A stretch of 64,000 nt of DNA from the IMG/VR virus record IMGVR_UViG_3300009431_000003. One strand, written 5' to 3'. This DNA comes from a virus. The first letter of the stretch is position 1. Every line of letters begins with the position of its first letter. The position numbers and the translations under genes are program-made. Shown here piece after piece: positions 44,441-56,540 of the stretch. The notes under the pieces were generated by a model. It searched no databases, was not told the origin of the DNA, and saw only the letters and a list, made by a program, of their open reading frames with translations.

Positions 44441-44629
44441 ATGCCATGTAACCGTAAAACAGAAGTTTATAGCAGAATTGTAGGGTATTATCGCCCAGTC
44501 CAACAATGGAATCCAGGTAAAAAAGCCGAGTTTCGTAACCGAAAAAACTACAAAATAACTGTGCCAAGCCCTAAAAAAGATTTAATTTCCGTACATACGG
44601 CACTGGAGCCCATTACAACTACTGCATAA
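44441..44629 (+). CDS. Stand-alone NrdD (class III RNR) C-terminal glycyl-radical peptide, 62 aa
   Basis: AGGAG RBS; TEVYSRIVGYYRPVQQWNPGKKAEF matches the NrdD C-terminal SRxxGY motif. Confidence 0.85.
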   Translation: MPCNRKTEVYSRIVGYYRPVQQWNPGKKAEFRNRKNYKITVPSPKKDLISVHTALEPITTTA

Positions 44630-48064: not shown

Positions 48065-48094
48065 TTGACACTATTAATTTTAATTACTTATAAT
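48065..48094 (+). promoter_or_regulatory. Consensus sigma70 promoter TTGACA-N18-TATAAT
   Basis: Both hexamers are exact consensus. Confidence 0.8.
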
Positions 48095-48102
48095 TACAGA
48101 CT

Positions 48103-48735
48103 ATGTTTTATCACAAAAACTTACTCTTTATACATATCCCGAAAACAGGAGGCACTTCTACTACAGAATACTTTAAAAAGGCGTTCAATCATGACACCGC
48201 AGAAGAAGCTCAAGGACTTCATAAACGAAAGCATTTTAGCCTGCAACAGATGCATAACGCAAATGATATCCTAAAGATACCATTTAAAACAATCACAGAA
48301 ATTTCAGTTATTTTTAGGCTGCCATTTGAACAAGTAGTATCCTTGTATCATCACTACAGACAGATCGCTTCTCCTATGAAAATATATCAAAAAGTAGAGC
48401 ATGTACAAAAAGCAGTAGAATTACCTTTTAATTCTTGGATACTTTGGGCTTCTACACATAACCTAAATAAATCAATAGGTAGAAGTTACGAAAAATATAT
48501 TTTTATAGAGGATAAAGTACCTACCAAATTAAAAATAATTGAATATTCTAATCTCCACAAAGAAGTGAGGGCAGTAGTTAAAAGGCATAAAGGAAATTAC
48601 AATACAGCATTTCCTCATCTACTTAAAACAAATCATAAACCTTGGCACATTTATTATAATAAAAAATCCCGCTCCATTATAGAAAAGCACTACTTATGGG
48701 TCTTCAAGCATTATTATCCTAATCTGCTTTCTTGA
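48103..48735 (+). CDS. Sulfotransferase family 2 (carbohydrate sulfotransferase-like)
   Basis: 5'-PSB FIHIPKTGGTS; 3'-PB IFRLPFEQVVSLY. Confidence 0.85.
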   Translation: MFYHKNLLFIHIPKTGGTSTTEYFKKAFNHDTAEEAQGLHKRKHFSLQQMHNANDILKIPFKTITEISVIFRLPFEQVVSLYHHYRQIASPMKIYQKVEHVQKAVELPFNSWILWASTHNLNKSIGRSYEKYIFIEDKVPTKLKIIEYSNLHKEVRAVVKRHKGNYNTAFPHLLKTNHKPWHIYYNKKSRSIIEKHYLWVFKHYYPNLLS

Positions 48736-49354
48736 CATTCTCATATTTATACCCAAAAAAAGATATCTCCTCTTTATACCGATAGTGTACAAGATTTCGT
48801 AGCTCCTTATTATAATAATACGAATAGTGCTTTCTATTTTTTGTGGTATTCATTTTGCTTAATTTTGGTACCAAATCTAATATACCAGCTATACGAGCCC
48901 AGTCTTCATCAAACCTTTCAACCCTCCCTATAAAATCAGGCAACCACAAACCACAAGATGTACGTAGTAAAAAAGGCTGAGAAGCTATATGATTTTCTGT
49001 ATTTTCATCAGGTAACCTACACACTTGCTTAATAAAGGAACCAAAAGACATCCCAACCTTAAATTTTGGAGAACAATCTCTAAACGACTGAAGAATATGG
49101 GGCTCTGTTGATTCTTTTATTTTTTGATACCAACAAGAGACTAGCCTATCCCAAGTATTCCGCACAAAAGTAAAAAAGAAGTAACCCTCATTTTTTAATT
49201 CAAGCATCAATTCGTCAGACACATCAGGCCTATGCTCCCCATAATGGCGCTCTAGTCCTCTTGCTATTGTAGTACTCGCCGCCTTTAATGAGCGTACAAA
49301 GACAAGGCGCTTGGAATCAATAACCCAATAATTCTGAGCCCTATTATGTGCCAC
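48719..49354 (-). CDS. Sulfotransferase family 2 (carbohydrate sulfotransferase-like)
   Basis: FVRSLKAASTTI; FTFVRNTWDRLVSCW; HIASQ; DFIGRVERFDED. Confidence 0.85.
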   Translation of the reverse strand: MAHNRAQNYWVIDSKRLVFVRSLKAASTTIARGLERHYGEHRPDVSDELMLELKNEGYFFFTFVRNTWDRLVSCWYQKIKESTEPHILQSFRDCSPKFKVGMSFGSFIKQVCRLPDENTENHIASQPFLLRTSCGLWLPDFIGRVERFDEDWARIAGILDLVPKLSKMNTTKNRKHYSYYYNKELRNLVHYRYKEEISFFGYKYENVKKAD

Positions 49355-49365
49355 AGATAAGCTTT

Positions 49366-52300
49366 CTATTTTTTATGACAAAAAAATATATAATCTTTCA
49401 TCAGGCCATATTTCTTTACATCATTAGGACGGAAAATATCAGAAGTTTTCAATACTTGTACAACAAAACCGACAGACTCTAAACGATCAACAATATCTAA
49501 ACCATAAGATCTGACATGCTCTGGATTAGCAAAATACTCGGCTGACTTCTTAAAACTTATACCCTCAACAGTTACTTCCTCTAAAATCGGAACCATAATA
49601 ACTGCCCAACTACCGATTTTAAGTACCCGATGTAATTCTCTCATAGCTTGTATATCATCATTAATGTGCTCCAACAAATGAACAGAAATAATAGCATCGA
49701 AGGAATTAAGGTCTTTAGGAATTGAAGTTATATCCACCCTTCTTAATTCTCCAGGGACCACATTAGAAGTAATATACTCAAGCTTAGAAAAAGAACTAAG
49801 TGCTTTCTTAATTCCTGCATTCGGGGAAAAATGCAAAACTTTGTATTTATTTTTAAAAAGTTTAGTTTTCCTTTTTAAAAATAAATACAACATACGATGG
49901 CGCTCTAAGGAGCCGCACTTGGGGCATTGAGCATCCTTCCTATTCACAGAACCAAAAGAACTAAAAGAACCCGTAAATGAGCATACCGGACAGTTCTTAT
50001 TGTCCTTACTTTCTTGCTCTGATATTTTGGGTTCCCAAATGTAAGTAGGGGTGTGGGCATAAGGACCTATAGCAGAATATTCCCATTCTTTTAAAAACTG
50101 ATCTATTTCTTTTTTATGTTTTACAGTATGACATTCACAGACAATAATGGGCTGTGAAGCTTTAATAATTTTTCTTGCCCCTTTAAGAGCAGCAAGTTCA
50201 TGCCCTTCTATATCAAGCTTAATAATTGAAACACTATCTTGCTTCACAAGAGAATCTAGCCGAAGATACCCCACCCCAAAAGTACCAACAGTAGAAAGCG
50301 TTTTGGTTCCTCCTACATTATTCGGATCGATATCATCAATTCCTCGTATTGGGGTATGTTTAGTTGATAAGCCCGCTGCTGCACAAATCACGCTGAATGT
50401 CTTGCTGAATAAATTATTAGTCTTAAGGTTATGATGAAGAATACTCGCCACCCCAGGAACTGCTTCAATAGAGATAACTTTATCTGAAAAGCATTCATTA
50501 AGAAAAAAGACTGCATGATTACCTATATTTCCTCCTACATCCAAATACGTGCCTTTTTTATTATAGCTCTTTAGCTTTTCAAGCAAATCCAGTTCATAAA
50601 ACTTGTTACTTGAACTAAGTCTTTGGTACAAAATATCTGACTCTGTTGCACAAAATATTTTATAAGTATGCTCTTTATACTTACAAACTGCACCAAGGCT
50701 AAAATTTACACCGCCCACAATATCCTCACTTTCAAATACACAATTCTCTTCATTTTCTATATAATTCTCTTCCCGAACAAACAATTCGTTTCCTGTCCCT
50801 GTATTTAACTGCGATTGTGTGGTCAGATGCCGGATAAAAGAACGTGCAGGGGCATAAAAATAATAATTTCCATTCATCATCCTATCAGCTATCTGAGGAA
50901 ATACTCCAGAACTTAAATACGGTTTATTATTCCATCTGGAACTAGCCACAGGAAATATCCTATGATCCAACAGTTTTGGTAATCGAGTAGCTGGGGCAAG
51001 CCACCCTTGCCCATCCATCCAATAATGTCGAACCACTACCTCATCACTAATCACCACTTCTTCCGCCAACTTCCGCCTCCAAGGATTAGTTCGAAAGCGT
51101 ACGTCACGAAACATACTCAAAGCCACTGCTTTTTTGTCGTGAGAAACTTTTTGCCATAAATTAAGCGCCTTCTCAAATATTCTATCACATAATTGAACAT
51201 CGTCTTGAATAACAGAAAGATACTTTGCTCCAGAATTTTTGAAAGACCTTAAAATTGCATCATGTATTCTCCAAAAGCCTGGTCGCCCATTTCGGGCAGA
51301 CAATTTACGATAGGACACAAACGAATATTTATTTACCAAATTAATTACCTCAGGGTATGGAAGCATCGAACAGTCATCAATAACCTCTATTTGCAAAGAG
51401 CACCCCCTTCCTTGCTCACGTATAATTGACCTAAGAGCTTTCTCTGCAAGCTCTGGACGATTATATGTAGTCAGATATACTTTTATGCTAGGCTGGTTAA
51501 TCTTGGTCTGGGGCGTCTTAGTCTCTATTATTGTGGAGTCATTCCATAATTGATGAAAGTCTATACTCTCGTAAACTTGTTCTGGGGTAATAGCTCTCAT
51601 ACAAGAAGCTTTATCGCAACCGATTTTACCTTTTGCTCCATAACACGGGAACCTCTTACAGCCTCCACCAGTACTCTGTATACAAAGAATTCTGCCGTTT
51701 GCAGGACTACACTTAGACCATAAAGTAGAACCAAATAATGCTACACCAGGAACCCCAACAGCATCAGCAACATGCATAAGGCCAGTATCATTACCTATAG
51801 CAAAATCACACATAGATAAAGCATCTGCTGTCTGATCCAGTGTTAATTTCCCTGCTGTATTTATACCTCGGTTTCCTAAAGTACGGCAAAGCCTATCACC
51901 ATACGCAAACTCTTTCTTGTCTCCAAAATAAATAAAGCGAACATCATGCTCTTGCAAAATTATTTTAGTTAGCTTTATCATATACTCTATCGGCCATAAT
52001 TTATGTGACCAGCTAGGATGACAACCATTATAAACAGCTATAGTACGCTTATCTCTCTTAACTATATTATTTGCATTTCTCGTCTTTATTGTTGAAGGGT
52101 ACTTAACAGTCCCTGGAATAATATCTAAATATGCCTGAGTTTCCGTTATTCCTAAAGCTTTCCAGTTTACCATAGGCTGCATAATCTGAGTAACATTATG
52201 CTTAGGTAAATTTTTTGGACTAAAACACCAAAGGGCAATTACCCGAGAAACATCTTGAGCCAATTTTGTTGTAGGAGATAGCTCTTTGACAGGCCACTTT

Positions 52301-54375
52301 GATATTGACTTAATTGCCGGTATTCTTGGATCATTATATTTTATATAAATTATTGGATTATTTAGATTCTGAATAAAAGGAGTTGCTTGAATAAAATTCC
52401 CGATACCATTATTAAAAAATACAGCATCTGAACTCAGTACCTTAACATCTTTATAGTTATACTTATAAAACCTACTAAACCGTTTGGAAATATCCCTTAG
52501 AGCTTTGGTAGGTTGATATGTTTTTGTAAGTTGTCCTGAATGCATACGATACTTACAAAATACCTGATCTACTAAAGCAAAAGTATACCCATTTAAAGAT
52601 AACTTACACCACAGATCAAAATCCTGTGCCTCTTGATTTGGTTGATCACTGTAATAGCCACCCACACGTACTACCGCATCTTTTCTAAAACATACAGTAG
52701 AGTGCCCAATACACCATCCCTGCTCCCACATAAACTTAGACTGATCTACTTTAAAAGAGGTACGGCGCACGTTGCCATACCCAACCGTCGAATTACTCTT
52801 ACTATCTATATAATCCATTTGACCAGACAACACTGATACTTCTTTATGCTTAAGCAAATACTCAACTTGAAATCTTAAACGATCAGGGACCATAACATCA
52901 TCAGAGTCTAAAACAGCGATACACTTACTATTACAGCCCATTAGAGCACTATTTCTAGCAGCAACAATCCCCTCATGCTTTAACCAAATAATCTTTACCC
53001 AAGAAAGTCTCTCATATTTTTTTAAAACCTCTATCGTCCCTGGATCAGTCGAACCATCATCAGCAACAACTAACTGTTTAATAACTCCTTTTTGTTTTTC
53101 TATAGAAGCTATAGCCTCTTCTAAAAAGCGTGACTTTGTATTATACACCACCATTAAAACAGCTACTTCATAGCTTTTTTGTGTTTTCGGTTTTGTCTTG
53201 AACCTATTAAGTACTTTTTTCTTAGGGAGCATACTTTCTTTACGTCGCTGTGTTTTTCTTTTTATTGCAGCAGGTATTCCTGATTTCTGTTTAGTATTTA
53301 CTTTTAAGCTTTTTGCTTCCCCAATCACATGAACAAATCTTTTAGTCATCGCAGCCACAGAATGCTCCTTATCCGCAAAAGTAAATGCCTGTTCCGCAAG
53401 GGTTTTTCTTACATAAGGGTTACGTAAGTCCCTCATTACATTACCAAACTCTTTCAAAGAATCAAAATACTTTATAGCGTCGTTTGGTATTTCCAAGTGA
53501 TAGACACTTGGGCCGCATACTTTCCTGGCCAGAACAGGCACCCCAGACCGCATAGCCTCAACAATAGTCTGTGGCCAGCCTTCCCAGTCAGAATAAACAA
53601 TATGAACATCCATTTTAGCAAAAAGAGCTGCCCGGTCCTCTACATCTACAATTAATTCTATGCCAGGTGCTCCTTTTATCTCTTTTTTTAGTGCCTTAAA
53701 ATAACCTGCAGCATATGGAGCAAAGCCGCCAGCAACAAGTAGACGATCCCCAGATTTCCTAGCCCGCTTAAAAGCCCTTACAATTTCCACAGCTTTCTTA
53801 CGTGGCTCGAAGTTTCCAAAATACCCAATAGTAAGATTTCTGCCAGTACCTATTTTCGGAGAACAACGGAGATCTGTAGATGAGAGAATCGAGACACAAT
53901 TTGTCTTTCTATATTTTTTCTCATATGCAGCAACTATACCTTTTCCAACTCCGATTACAGTATGAATTTTATCTTTACCGTAATCAATTGCCTTGTATCC
54001 CCAAGCATCCATTGTATGAGCAACATAAATATAGCTTACGCCCAGATGAGGACTAAGAACACTTGGAATATTCGCTGGGCCGGCAAACACTACAATATCC
54101 GCACGAAAGGATCGGACAAAGGAAATAAGGGCACTATCCTTTGTTCCTAAATATTTAACAGGAGAATTTCCCGCCCGCCGCTGGTATACTTTAAGCGCTT
54201 CATTATAGACTTTGCCGCGCCACCCAACATAAGCTTTCCTGGCAGAATCTCCAAGAGAATTGCCTAGAGAAATTAAGTGACCGAAAACCCCGCCCCAATG
54301 AAGCCCGGGATATACAAAAACAATTCTTGGTTTATTCATAAATATTGTACTATCACCATAAGCTACTAATTCCAA
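49366..54375 (-). CDS. Six-domain glycan-synthesis polyprotein GT4-GT2-GT9-GT2-like-FkbM MTase-class I MTase, 1669 aa (likely start MNKPR at 54339)
   Basis: EGWPQTIVEAM (GT4); VADDGSTD/VLDSDD (GT2); GIGNFIQ/GNDTGLMH (GT9); TTYNRP/VIDDCS/QDD (GT-A); LDVGGNIG/KLDIEG (FkbM); CPVC..CPKC/HLLEHI/ELHRVLK (MTase). Confidence 0.9.
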   Translation of the reverse strand: MELVAYGDSTIFMNKPRIVFVYPGLHWGGVFGHLISLGNSLGDSARKAYVGWRGKVYNEALKVYQRRAGNSPVKYLGTKDSALISFVRSFRADIVVFAGPANIPSVLSPHLGVSYIYVAHTMDAWGYKAIDYGKDKIHTVIGVGKGIVAAYEKKYRKTNCVSILSSTDLRCSPKIGTGRNLTIGYFGNFEPRKKAVEIVRAFKRARKSGDRLLVAGGFAPYAAGYFKALKKEIKGAPGIELIVDVEDRAALFAKMDVHIVYSDWEGWPQTIVEAMRSGVPVLARKVCGPSVYHLEIPNDAIKYFDSLKEFGNVMRDLRNPYVRKTLAEQAFTFADKEHSVAAMTKRFVHVIGEAKSLKVNTKQKSGIPAAIKRKTQRRKESMLPKKKVLNRFKTKPKTQKSYEVAVLMVVYNTKSRFLEEAIASIEKQKGVIKQLVVADDGSTDPGTIEVLKKYERLSWVKIIWLKHEGIVAARNSALMGCNSKCIAVLDSDDVMVPDRLRFQVEYLLKHKEVSVLSGQMDYIDSKSNSTVGYGNVRRTSFKVDQSKFMWEQGWCIGHSTVCFRKDAVVRVGGYYSDQPNQEAQDFDLWCKLSLNGYTFALVDQVFCKYRMHSGQLTKTYQPTKALRDISKRFSRFYKYNYKDVKVLSSDAVFFNNGIGNFIQATPFIQNLNNPIIYIKYNDPRIPAIKSISKWPVKELSPTTKLAQDVSRVIALWCFSPKNLPKHNVTQIMQPMVNWKALGITETQAYLDIIPGTVKYPSTIKTRNANNIVKRDKRTIAVYNGCHPSWSHKLWPIEYMIKLTKIILQEHDVRFIYFGDKKEFAYGDRLCRTLGNRGINTAGKLTLDQTADALSMCDFAIGNDTGLMHVADAVGVPGVALFGSTLWSKCSPANGRILCIQSTGGGCKRFPCYGAKGKIGCDKASCMRAITPEQVYESIDFHQLWNDSTIIETKTPQTKINQPSIKVYLTTYNRPELAEKALRSIIREQGRGCSLQIEVIDDCSMLPYPEVINLVNKYSFVSYRKLSARNGRPGFWRIHDAILRSFKNSGAKYLSVIQDDVQLCDRIFEKALNLWQKVSHDKKAVALSMFRDVRFRTNPWRRKLAEEVVISDEVVVRHYWMDGQGWLAPATRLPKLLDHRIFPVASSRWNNKPYLSSGVFPQIADRMMNGNYYFYAPARSFIRHLTTQSQLNTGTGNELFVREENYIENEENCVFESEDIVGGVNFSLGAVCKYKEHTYKIFCATESDILYQRLSSSNKFYELDLLEKLKSYNKKGTYLDVGGNIGNHAVFFLNECFSDKVISIEAVPGVASILHHNLKTNNLFSKTFSVICAAAGLSTKHTPIRGIDDIDPNNVGGTKTLSTVGTFGVGYLRLDSLVKQDSVSIIKLDIEGHELAALKGARKIIKASQPIIVCECHTVKHKKEIDQFLKEWEYSAIGPYAHTPTYIWEPKISEQESKDNKNCPVCSFTGSFSSFGSVNRKDAQCPKCGSLERHRMLYLFLKRKTKLFKNKYKVLHFSPNAGIKKALSSFSKLEYITSNVVPGELRRVDITSIPKDLNSFDAIISVHLLEHINDDIQAMRELHRVLKIGSWAVIMVPILEEVTVEGISFKKSAEYFANPEHVRSYGLDIVDRLESVGFVVQVLKTSDIFRPNDVKKYGLMKDYIFFCHKK

Positions 54376-55793: not shown

Positions 55794-55823
55794 TCACCCA
55801 TAAGAGTAGTGAAAGGAGGCTAT

Positions 55824-56540
55824 ATGGATATACATCTTGAAATTACTCGCAGATGCAATCTACGCTGCGATCATTGCCTCCGAGGTGGAGCACAACGGGT
55901 AGATGTATCCGACAGGGTTCTATACAAAGTATTTCAGCAATGGCCTACTGAGTACATAGGCTCTGTTACTTTTACGGGCGGTGAGCCCTCACTCGTACCT
56001 GACCGAATAGAGAAATTTAGGCACGAACTCCAATATCGCGGAAGCATACTGGGTTTTTGGGAACTTACAACAAATGCTCATTATATTACGGAACCTTTTC
56101 TTACTGCTCTTGAAAAGCTGTCCTGGCATGTCGATGAGAAAGATATGTGCTCGATAAGGATTTCGAGGGACCACTTTCACCGAGCACTCTCGCAGCAACG
56201 CAGCAGGTGGAAATTACAAGAATGGGGAGAACTAACCGGAATTCATATCTACGAAGACAAAGCCCTCGATACTTTTACGGAGAAAATTAAAGGTCAGGGC
56301 AGAGCAAAAAGATATCAGTTAGGTTACGATATCTCAGACAAACACACCCCAGAGTGGGAATACTCTCTTGATGATGATGGCGAAATATCTCACACAGCAG
56401 GCAGTGTATATGTCAATGCTTATGGGGATATAATCGATGGCTGCAATTGGTCATGGATTGAACAGAAACAGCACATCCTTGGAAATGTAAAACACCATAA
56501 GATTGCATCACTTTTAATAAAATACGGAAAGGCGGTATAA
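55824..56540 (+). CDS. Radical SAM protein
   Basis: EITRRCNLRCDHC (CxxxCxxC), FTGGEP, TTNA; AAGGAGG RBS. Confidence 0.9.
   Translation: MDIHLEITRRCNLRCDHCLRGGAQRVDVSDRVLYKVFQQWPTEYIGSVTFTGGEPSLVPDRIEKFRHELQYRGSILGFWELTTNAHYITEPFLTALEKLSWHVDEKDMCSIRISRDHFHRALSQQRSRWKLQEWGELTGIHIYEDKALDTFTEKIKGQGRAKRYQLGYDISDKHTPEWEYSLDDDGEISHTAGSVYVNAYGDIIDGCNWSWIEQKQHILGNVKHHKIASLLIKYGKAV

Follow-up and report, generated by a model that had tools for sequence, protein, structure and literature searches.

A phage protein with six predicted glycan-building modules, accompanied by two putative sulfotransferases, in a variable glycan island of a large phage lineage

We find that a 64,000-nt stretch of viral DNA from the IMG/VR record IMGVR_UViG_3300009431_000003 (the whole stretch is referred to here as the window) carries at positions 48,103 to 54,375 a cassette in which one protein, which we call the megaenzyme, is accompanied by two predicted sulfotransferases. 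The presence of four glycosyltransferases (GTs; GT4, GT2, GT9-like and GT-A) and two S-adenosylmethionine (SAM)-dependent methyltransferases (MTs) in this one protein is strongly supported by sequence comparison. Since related phages carry a differently equipped version of the cassette at the same position, it is most likely that the phage makes a decorated sugar chain of its own. That the enzymology is one of multi-step glycan building, irrespective of the acceptor, we regard as highly probable, while the whole reading, in which the acceptor is a glycan of the host envelope or a lipid-linked glycan, is given a probability of roughly 0.4. The features of the cassette are the following.

48065..48094, plus strand: sigma-70 consensus promoter, TTGACA-18-TATAAT, 12/12, ending 8 nt before the ATG of ST2
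48103..48735, plus strand: ST2, 210 amino acids (aa), convergent with ST1; Sulfotransfer_2, borderline
48719..49354, minus strand: ST1, 211 aa, GTG start 11 nt past the megaenzyme stop; Sulfotransfer_2
49366..54375, minus strand: megaenzyme open reading frame (ORF), 1669 aa from TTG 54375; likely start ATG 54339, giving 1657 aa (identical to the database protein P0004)
49372..49992, minus strand: Cys4 zinc ribbon and class I SAM methyltransferase, residues 1462-1668; CPVC 1462-1465, CPKC 1484-1487
50077..50565, minus strand: FkbM SAM methyltransferase module, residues 1271-1433
50746..51513, minus strand: second GT-A module, residues 955-1210; TYNRP 970-974, DDCS 1000-1003, QDD 1057-1059
51556..52443, minus strand: GT9-like GT-B module, residues 645-940; K-x-W-P 792-795, D-T-G-x-x-H 863-868
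51601..51660, minus strand: Cys4 cluster of the GT9-like clade, C906, C911, C920 and C925; presumed metal site
52456..53175, minus strand: GT2 GT-A module, residues 401-640; DDGS 439-442, DSDD 490-493, QDFD 584-587
53176..53310, minus strand: polybasic linker, residues 356-400, with 17 K/R and 1 D/E in 45 residues; disordered
53311..54339, minus strand: GT4-type GT-B module, residues 13-355; E-x7-E at E265...E273

One polypeptide with six catalytic modules

The long ORF, which an earlier note made from the sequence alone had described, is real, and its start is likely the ATG at 54339, which would give a protein of 1657 rather than 1669 residues. We prefer this start because the database gene call for P0004 begins there, because the N-terminus counted from this Met lines up with the start of the GT4 fold in the relative P0015, and because the ATG of the divergent plus-strand neighbour lies about 50 nt from the megaenzyme start region. 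The earlier note had also considered that the ORF could be a misassembly of separate genes, which is contradicted by the finding that an identical protein is recorded on three contigs, the longest of 182.6 kb, with the gene whole on the one that was read (a JGI contig of 162.8 kb). Furthermore, the junction between GT4 and GT2 lies within a single ORF in the independent relative P0015, and the junctions of GT2, GT9, GT-A and MT lie within a single ORF in the independent relative P0005. Because P0005 keeps GT2-GT9-GT-A-MT in one ORF at 53% identity, we take the fusion into a single polypeptide to be authentic and not a product of misassembly, and because P0005 and P0015 are both colinear with the megaenzyme, all junctions except those flanking the FkbM module are independently attested. 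The prediction that all six catalytic modules belong to one authentic polypeptide is thus strongly supported.

The other properties that had been read from the sequence were also recovered. The domain order GT4, GT2, GT9-like, GT-A, FkbM and Cys4 with class I MT agrees with Pfam and with the predicted folds, and the expected catalytic or cofactor motifs are found in all modules, several of them being kept in the relatives. The proposed basic linker is present at residues 356-400. No transmembrane (TM) segment is predicted in the megaenzyme, the highest Kyte-Doolittle mean over any 19 residues being 1.38, and the gene does lie on the strand opposite its neighbours, the genes on either side of the cassette both being on the plus strand. 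The cassette is richer in AT than its surroundings (GC content 0.32-0.40 vs 0.41-0.44 in the flanks), and the GT4 module, at 0.416, is the part nearest to the phage background.

Assignment of the modules

The Pfam assignments given here are all above the curated cut-offs, and NCBIfam and PDB sequence searches concur at the superfamily level. The two modules least covered by Pfam (residues 636-950 and 951-1222) were folded with AlphaFold2 (AF2) using alignments of relatives.

In the N-terminal module, Glycos_transf_1/Glyco_trans_1_4 match at residues 181-291 (PF00534, 44.5 bits, cut-off 26.4; PF13692, 54.6 bits, cut-off 27). The assignment to GT4 rests on these Pfam matches and on the motif E265-x7-E273, which is identical in the P0015 counterpart, a module of 46% overall identity. 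The position of the polybasic linker that follows is not conserved in P0015; P0005 is also rich in K/R just ahead of its GT2 module. The GT2 module itself matches Glycos_transf_2 (PF00535, 84.8 bits, cut-off 23.3) at residues 406-564 and in a second stretch, finds chondroitin synthase among PDB sequences (E 5.5e-13), and has a weak GtrB-like match in PHROGs. Its DDGS and DSDD motifs are conserved in both P0005 and P0015.

The GT9-like module scores 71.2 bits against Glyco_transf_9 (PF01075, cut-off 22) at residues 776-901, and the AF2 model of residues 636-950 is a complete two-domain GT-B fold with a predicted local distance difference test (pLDDT) score of 88.9. The top matches of this fold in both Foldseek and VIA are GT9 structures, with VIA Z-scores of 25.7 for 3tov, 25.6 for WaaF, 22.8 for WaaC and 19.3 for TibC; for 3tov and WaaF about 280 residues are aligned at 3.0 A. 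Thus, the Pfam score and the two-domain fold nearest to solved GT9 structures both place the module in this family. At the sequence level its profile matches the donor domain of WaaF (E 3.4e-27), and the N-terminal acceptor domain is without a sequence match. The motifs K-x-W-P and D-T-G-x-x-H, which we take to be the ADP-heptose-binding motifs of WaaC/WaaF, are present, and one of the sugars added is probably a heptose-type residue. An ADP-heptose-type donor is thereby suggested, and therefore a Gram-negative host.

Two features set the clade of this module apart. When 14 clade members are aligned, three of the four Cys of the Cys4 cluster are invariant and one is nearly so; the cluster brings to mind the iron-binding Cys cluster that has been described for TibC, a resemblance only. 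The clade furthermore reads N-G-I-G-N-F at residues 656-661 (52393-52410, minus strand), and the Asn of G-I-G-N-F (657-661) is kept in most members, being E or S in two. In canonical heptosyltransferases such as WaaC (D13) this place is taken by the catalytic N-terminal G-D motif; the clade appears to have G-N instead, and the catalytic base of the module may lie elsewhere.

For the second GT-A module, the AF2 model of residues 951-1222 is a GT-A fold (pLDDT 85) whose top Foldseek matches are GnT-I, POMGnT1, SpsA and ppGalNAc-T (probability 1.0, TM-score 0.5-0.6). D1058 and D1059 are invariant in the alignment of its clade (A2). Its identification as a GT-A fold is strongly supported by the model, and within that fold it may be of a GT13/GT2-like kind.

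The FkbM module matches Methyltransf_21 at residues 1279-1433 (PF05050, 57.6 bits, cut-off 22.7) and TIGR01444 (77.9 bits, cut-off 37.7), with the SAM motif DVGGNIG at 1279-1285; it is missing from P0005. The C-terminal MT matches Methyltransf_11 at residues 1542-1593 (PF08241, 38.1 bits, cut-off 21.2), where profile positions 44-95 alone are matched, and also PF13489. Its motif I is divergent (VLHFSP) yet kept in stand-alone homologues, to which the Cys4-MT region is 38% (L002) and 30% (L014) identical in MAFFT alignments with the ribbon kept. PDB sequence searches with the FkbM module, the C-terminal MT and ST1 gave weak generic matches only, and PADLOC found no match to the megaenzyme or ST1.

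Two sulfotransferases and a host-type promoter

The earlier note had placed one sulfotransferase 11 nt after the ORF and had counted two in all, and both identifications stand. ST1 matches PF03567 with 60.4 bits (E 3.9e-16) and phrog_3347 (E 4.7e-11). ST2 is borderline in the same family (23.6 bits vs a cut-off of 22) and is supported in the ESM Atlas by a feature score of 0.96 and a structural TM-score of 0.84 to Sulfotransfer_2 clusters dominated by viruses. The motifs for binding of 3'-phosphoadenosine 5'-phosphosulfate (PAPS) were read by eye only. Because the GTG of ST1 follows the megaenzyme stop by 11 nt with no obvious Shine-Dalgarno sequence, ST1 is probably translationally coupled to the megaenzyme. 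The 3' ends of ST1 and ST2 overlap by 17 nt; there is no significant similarity between the two proteins, and neither is a recent duplicate of the other.

ST2 is predicted to sit behind a host-type promoter. The sigma-70 consensus upstream of it is the only match with at most one mismatch in the 64-kb window, for an estimated chance expectation of about 0.02 per window, and since it ends 8 nt before the ATG, a leaderless or near-leaderless mRNA made by the host RNA polymerase would be expected.

Neither ST2 nor the GT9 module has a PHROG. Among deposited phage genomes one record matches ST1 and none matches ST2, and our literature search found no paper characterising a phage sulfotransferase. 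A PADLOC match to Cmr5 inside ST2 (E 7.8e-5) was weak and was taken as chance.

A syntenic glycan island with exchanged distal modules

Word-based searches of 5.8 billion proteins, made with the whole protein and with the GT4-GT2 alignment at 'longer' lengths, returned only P0004, P0005 and P0015 as sharing more than one module, and the exact six-module architecture thus appears almost unique. P0005 (1118 aa, complete within its contig) is without GT4 and FkbM; it aligns colinearly with residues 385-1219, covering GT2-GT9-GT-A2, at 53% identity, and its Cys4-MT matches residues 1462-1668 at 57%. In P0015 (1224 aa) the colinear part is GT4-GT2 (residues 14-634), at 46% identity. We note that unrelated multi-domain GT/MT/TPR proteins of 1200-2900 aa exist in bacteria, and for this reason the genre of giant multi-GT proteins is not new. 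Scans of IMG/VR with the megaenzyme, its DUF932 neighbour and the GT4-GT2 alignment yielded no true relative (one contig, L007, was discarded as it had a single generic GT2 match of 26%), and a scan of metagenome contigs yielded nothing.

P0015 is carried by a phage-like contig of about 172 kb (L003-L005, of which L003/L004 are JGI 3300076588 and 3300076257), and six of the genes flanking the cassette in the window have homologues in L003/L004 in preserved order at 26-40% identity. The conserved flanks comprise a DUF932 gene on one side and a gene of 271/300 aa on the other, and in both phages the cassette, which in the relative spans 2575-8265 of L004, lies on the strand opposite its neighbours. 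The flanking genes are less conserved than the GT4-GT2 head (46%). The distal content differs: in the window it consists of GT9, GT-A2, FkbM and Cys4-MT plus the two sulfotransferases, and in L003-L005 of a second GT2 and a PLOD-type GT (E 3.8e-21) plus a Methyltransf_24/3 gene and a 458-aa GNAT-like gene. These comparisons strongly support a 'glycan island' in this large phage, conserved in its place but variable in content, and the pattern looks like that of a core glycan that is kept while its outer decorations can be exchanged. Near the cassette of L003/L004 we also observe genes for thymidylate kinase, NT5C and DHH and a weak AcrVA2-like gene.

A recurrent cassette in phages and bacteria

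In an exhaustive profile-free search of 1.8 billion representatives, the core modules each had stand-alone relatives, those of the GT9-like module being about 300 aa and 38-46% identical. Other fusions of the GT9-like clade are GT4-GT9 (P0016), GT4-GT9-MT-GT2 (P0041) and GT9-MT (P0025), and stand-alone homologues of the second GT-A module are found in L011, L012 and L014. The GT9-like and GT-A2 modules travel with the Cys4-MT in P0005, L011 and L014, and GT9 with the Cys4-MT in L002.

Several of these loci are on phage contigs. In L006 the major capsid gene is immediately succeeded by a GT4-GT9 fusion; between this and the tail genes come genes for a 1070-aa radical-SAM/MT/GT protein, a methyltransferase and a UDP-glucose dehydrogenase. 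L011/L012 have separate genes for a GT4, a GT-A2 homologue (28%, E 1e-22), a GT9-like protein (41.5%) and a methyltransferase, downstream of an endolysin, three small genes and a beta-helix protein (Beta_helix/NosD) that is a putative depolymerase-type tailspike. L008 has a GT2, a 288-aa gene and a GT9-like gene (44%) downstream of genes for a baseplate protein, a large fibre-sized protein and an endolysin. L002 combines GT4-GT9-MT-GT2, a radical SAM gene and a Cys4-MT (39% to residues 1462-1666). GT9-fold proteins are moreover already annotated in uncultured Caudovirales in the BFVD, and a paper on huge phages lists a heptosyltransferase as an auxiliary metabolic gene (PMC10747093).

On the bacterial side, L014 is a contig of a metagenome-assembled genome (GC content 0.64) with the locus just upstream of hisS-like and hisG genes. 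Its adjacent genes encode a GT9-GT2 fusion, a Cys4-MT (34% by BLASTP), a tandem GT-A2 protein (29%, 27%) and a GT9-like protein (36%), together with another methyltransferase, a radical SAM protein and a PMT_2-type GT-C. In L013, a bacterial contig of 411 kb, a GT9-like gene (38%) lies among three GT4 genes and a Bac_transf priming transferase, along with a radical-SAM protein with a Wzt_C domain, a UDP-glucose dehydrogenase and epimerases.

The earlier note had rated the locus as a candidate undescribed system and had named a common occurrence of the same architecture in bacterial lipopolysaccharide (LPS) or capsule loci as one finding that would speak against it. The fused form is not common, having two multi-module relatives only, and the modules are indeed present as neighbouring genes in L013 and L014. 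As the GT9-like, GT-A and Cys4-MT modules recur as separate genes in phages and bacteria, adjoining one another in bacterial polysaccharide loci and on other phage contigs, the term undescribed system is too strong, and the megaenzyme appears to be a fused and expanded form of a recurrent cassette common to bacteria and phages.

In phage as well as bacterial loci, the GT9-like/GT-A2/Cys4-MT cassette comes with a radical SAM family of about 250 aa. Its members, which are 35-40% identical mutually, are at the following positions.

L002, 8699-9463
L006, 12359-13140
L014, 12488-13240

The window has a radical SAM gene of its own (55809-56540), 1.4 kb upstream of the megaenzyme, with generic viperin/MoaA-type matches; because its similarity to the cassette family is weak (26% over 140 aa), we did not count it as part of the system.

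Comparison with known systems

Bacterial proteins of the WbdA/WbdD and WbbB types are multi-module synthases and terminators of ABC-transporter-dependent O-antigen or capsule pathways. Like them, the megaenzyme combines GT4, GT2 and GT9 modules with SAM methyltransferases and has no TM segment; the bacterial proteins act on lipid-linked glycans. Bacterial loci mostly keep such modules as individual genes or fuse them in pairs, and genes for priming and export are close by; the phage has six modules in one protein, adds two sulfotransferases and has no gene for priming or export in its island. With WaaC, WaaF and TibC the GT9 module shares the full GT-B fold, K-x-W-P and D-T-G-x-x-H. It differs from them in having 14-20% identity only, in being embedded in a multi-module protein, and in the clade-specific Cys4 after the donor domain and the seeming replacement of G-D by G-N.

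In the chlorovirus PBCV-1, A064R has two rhamnosyltransferase domains and a methyltransferase, and A111/114R has three GT functions (PMC7826918, PMC9614988). The phage system resembles these in that a virus-encoded soluble protein fuses GTs (in A064R with a methyltransferase) and would make a virus-specific glycan from host donors, a likeness of described architecture and function. Unlike the proteins of this eukaryotic giant virus, with two to three GT functions each, the megaenzyme has four GTs and two methyltransferases; neither a GT9-type module nor sulfotransferases are described for PBCV-1, where the acceptor is the major capsid protein.

Gtr seroconversion, the glycans of mycobacteriophage virions and the glycans built on 5-hydroxymethylcytosine (5hmC) are likewise cases of phage-borne GTs altering a surface or DNA that is recognised (the relevant summary in PMC12619734; 10.1101/2023.12.21.572611). 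In these systems the GT genes are separate and number one to a few, and sulfotransferases are not described for any of them. The island does not match a Gtr-type cassette (GtrA flippase, GtrB and membrane GtrC), having neither TM proteins nor Gtr families, and a 5hmC-glycan pathway, in which GTs are clustered with a base-hydroxymethylating enzyme, is not matched within the window.

Proposed mechanism

The earlier note read the protein as a soluble module that builds a glycan in several steps from host donors, which would follow naturally from the architecture, and its statement that nucleotide-sugar synthesis genes are absent was borne out. Among the 74 ORFs of the window we found no families for nucleotide-sugar or PAPS synthesis, and none for a priming transferase, flippase, ABC transporter or ligase. 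We suggest that the megaenzyme acts in the cytoplasm, where it would attach about four sugars one after another with nucleotide sugars of the host as donors. The GT4-GT2 head would probably lay down the inner residues, since it is common to both phage lineages, and the GT9-like and GT-A2 modules would add outer ones. Two O-methylations (with SAM) and up to two sulfations (with PAPS) could then finish or cap the glycan. In the reading that we favor, the acceptor would be a membrane-associated intermediate of the host envelope, namely an undecaprenyl-linked glycan or the LPS core, to which the polybasic segment could help by tethering the protein to anionic membranes, and a changed surface glycan, capped with methyl and sulfate groups, would be displayed or shed by the infected cell. 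The phage would likely gain from this through masking of the receptor, exclusion of competing phages or avoidance of re-adsorption by progeny.

The virion, DNA and LPS, all named as possible targets in the earlier note, are not separable by sequence, and the evidence would seem to move the weight somewhat toward the host envelope. We favor this acceptor because counterparts of the GT9-like, GT-A2 and Cys4-MT modules are found in lipid-primed polysaccharide loci (L013, L014), because the GT9 fold is nearer to WaaF and WaaC than to TibC, because a polybasic disordered segment is present, and because the window's single host-type promoter precedes ST2. It is also favored because PHROGs files the GT and sulfotransferase matches under 'moron / host takeover', including GtrB-like O-antigen conversion, and because the L011 cassette lies downstream of a putative tailspike and lysis genes. 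Surface-conversion morons classically lie in such a place, where a late operon ends.

Several points weigh against a host-envelope acceptor. With the priming, flippase, ABC transporter, ligase, nucleotide-sugar and PAPS genes lacking among the 74 ORFs, every export step would have to come from the host. Surface conversion is best documented for temperate phages, and this phage looks lytic and large. The GT4-GT9 fusion placed directly after the major capsid gene in L006 and the PLOD-type GT in the syntenic relative both fit virion glycosylation better, the PLOD family being known from protein (collagen) glycosylation. The transfer chemistry of the GT9 module may differ from that of WaaC, because G-D appears to be replaced by G-N. 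Finally, the context evidence comes from about ten loci.

Alternative acceptors and functions

The same enzymology could instead act on a capsid, decoration or tail protein of the phage, with module swaps varying the coat, which we consider possible if doubtful. Precedents are the multidomain GT and GT-MT proteins of chloroviruses (PMC7826918, PMC9614988) and, as far as the summary in PMC12619734 goes, the glycans of mycobacteriophage capsids and tail tubes. The L006 cassette, lying between the major capsid gene and the tail genes, the unfused cassettes of L008 and L011 at the end of a late operon for structure and lysis, and the PLOD-type domain in which P0015 ends would all agree with a virion acceptor, as would a megaenzyme that has no TM segment, is oriented like the structural genes of the window and is accompanied by no export genes among the 74 ORFs. 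The end of a late operon is, however, also the usual position of morons, and in the window the cassette lies among non-structural plus-strand genes. Moreover, it is lipid-primed polysaccharide loci that contain the nearest bacterial counterparts of the modules, the LPS heptosyltransferases are a closer match to the GT9 fold than TibC is, and we found no convincing collagen-like or Ser/Thr-rich candidate acceptor among the window proteins. Another kind of acceptor, such as a cytoplasmic protein of host or phage, a small molecule, or an oligosaccharide or exopolysaccharide, free or secreted, that alters the matrix of the infected cell, appears unlikely to us. It would be in line with the fact that all residues of the megaenzyme belong to catalytic modules or linkers, with no sequence specifying an acceptor, and FkbM methyltransferases and sulfotransferases also tailor small glycoconjugates such as Nod factors; on the other hand, the island has no carrier, transporter or regulator genes.

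Hypermodification of DNA, in which the GTs would build a glycan on a hydroxymethylated base and so evade restriction, is very improbable in our judgement. In phages, glycans of several sugars can be built onto 5hmC by GT-A and GT-B enzymes (10.1101/2023.12.21.572611), the polybasic linker could bind DNA, and the neighbourhood of the relative includes the thymidylate kinase, NT5C and DHH genes. However, 5hmC-glycan pathways are usually clustered (10.1101/2023.12.21.572611), and none of the 74 window ORFs encodes a ThyS-like hydroxymethylase, a TET/5mYOX protein or a C5-methyltransferase. The module relatives sit in polysaccharide loci, neither of the two folded modules (GT9 and second GT-A) has T4 beta-GT or JGT among its top fold matches, and four GTs, two methyltransferases and two sulfotransferases acting on a base would be unprecedented. 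We give equally little credence to the idea that the cassette is a captured bacterial gene that is decaying or without function in the phage. The GC content below that of the flanks and the existence of a bacterial counterpart set of modules could be explained by it, but the 5-kb reading frame is intact, all catalytic motifs are kept, GT4-GT2 (46%) outconserves the flanks (26-40%) across a deep phage divergence, and the core is conserved at 53% in P0005.

Novelty and significance

Phages with sets of GTs and MTs are not new, and neither are giant multi-GT proteins. What appears to be new is the fusion of six modules in one phage protein paired with two distinct sulfotransferases, the syntenic island with swapped distal modules, and a Cys4-bearing GT9-like clade common to phages and bacterial glycan loci. 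Glycans made by phage enzymes are known from few systems, namely serotype conversion, mycobacteriophage virions and DNA glycans, and the present locus offers a compact, soluble, six-step assembly line that is expressible as one protein. It is also a natural module-swap experiment, in which GT4-GT2 is kept and the distal modules are exchanged in two lineages, a pattern that would be expected for a structure under diversifying selection.

As a tentative possibility, the locus could be a fast-evolving 'glycan writer' that decorates the particle (less likely the DNA) with a heptose-containing, O-methylated and sulfated oligosaccharide. If so, it would be the first case of a phage that makes a sulfated glycan, and the swapped C-terminal modules and tailoring genes would record an arms race over glycan recognition. 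A product on the virion or on the surface of the infected cell would bear on phage exclusion, receptor masking and environmental persistence, and the enzymes could serve as parts for glyco-engineering.

Other features of the window

The window is like that of a large novel tailed phage, with tightly packed genes, mostly without families, and several proteins of more than 800 aa; the contigs of this phage are 163-183 kb. No tRNAs were called in the window, and the large neighbours that look structural had no match in PHROGs or Pfam. The 'moraphage' lineage of PMC12619734 was weighed as a possible home for the phage, but we see nothing that connects it with this contig. A megablast search against deposited phages gave no match, nor did tblastn with the 1086-aa protein, and tblastn against deposited phages found generic GT2 and FkbM matches only (23-35%) and none for the GT9 module. 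The window also encodes Cpn10, RimK-type ATP-grasp enzymes and a DUF932 protein of a kind that is common in phages. A 62-aa ORF at 44441-44629 (plus strand) matches the C-terminal glycyl-radical region of NrdD (PF13597, E 1.4e-10), with no NrdD body in the window. Weak single Pfam matches of window ORFs are to Sigma70_r3, HicB, a TacA1 antitoxin-like family and an Imm5-like family, which may point to antitoxin-like genes and a sigma factor of the phage.

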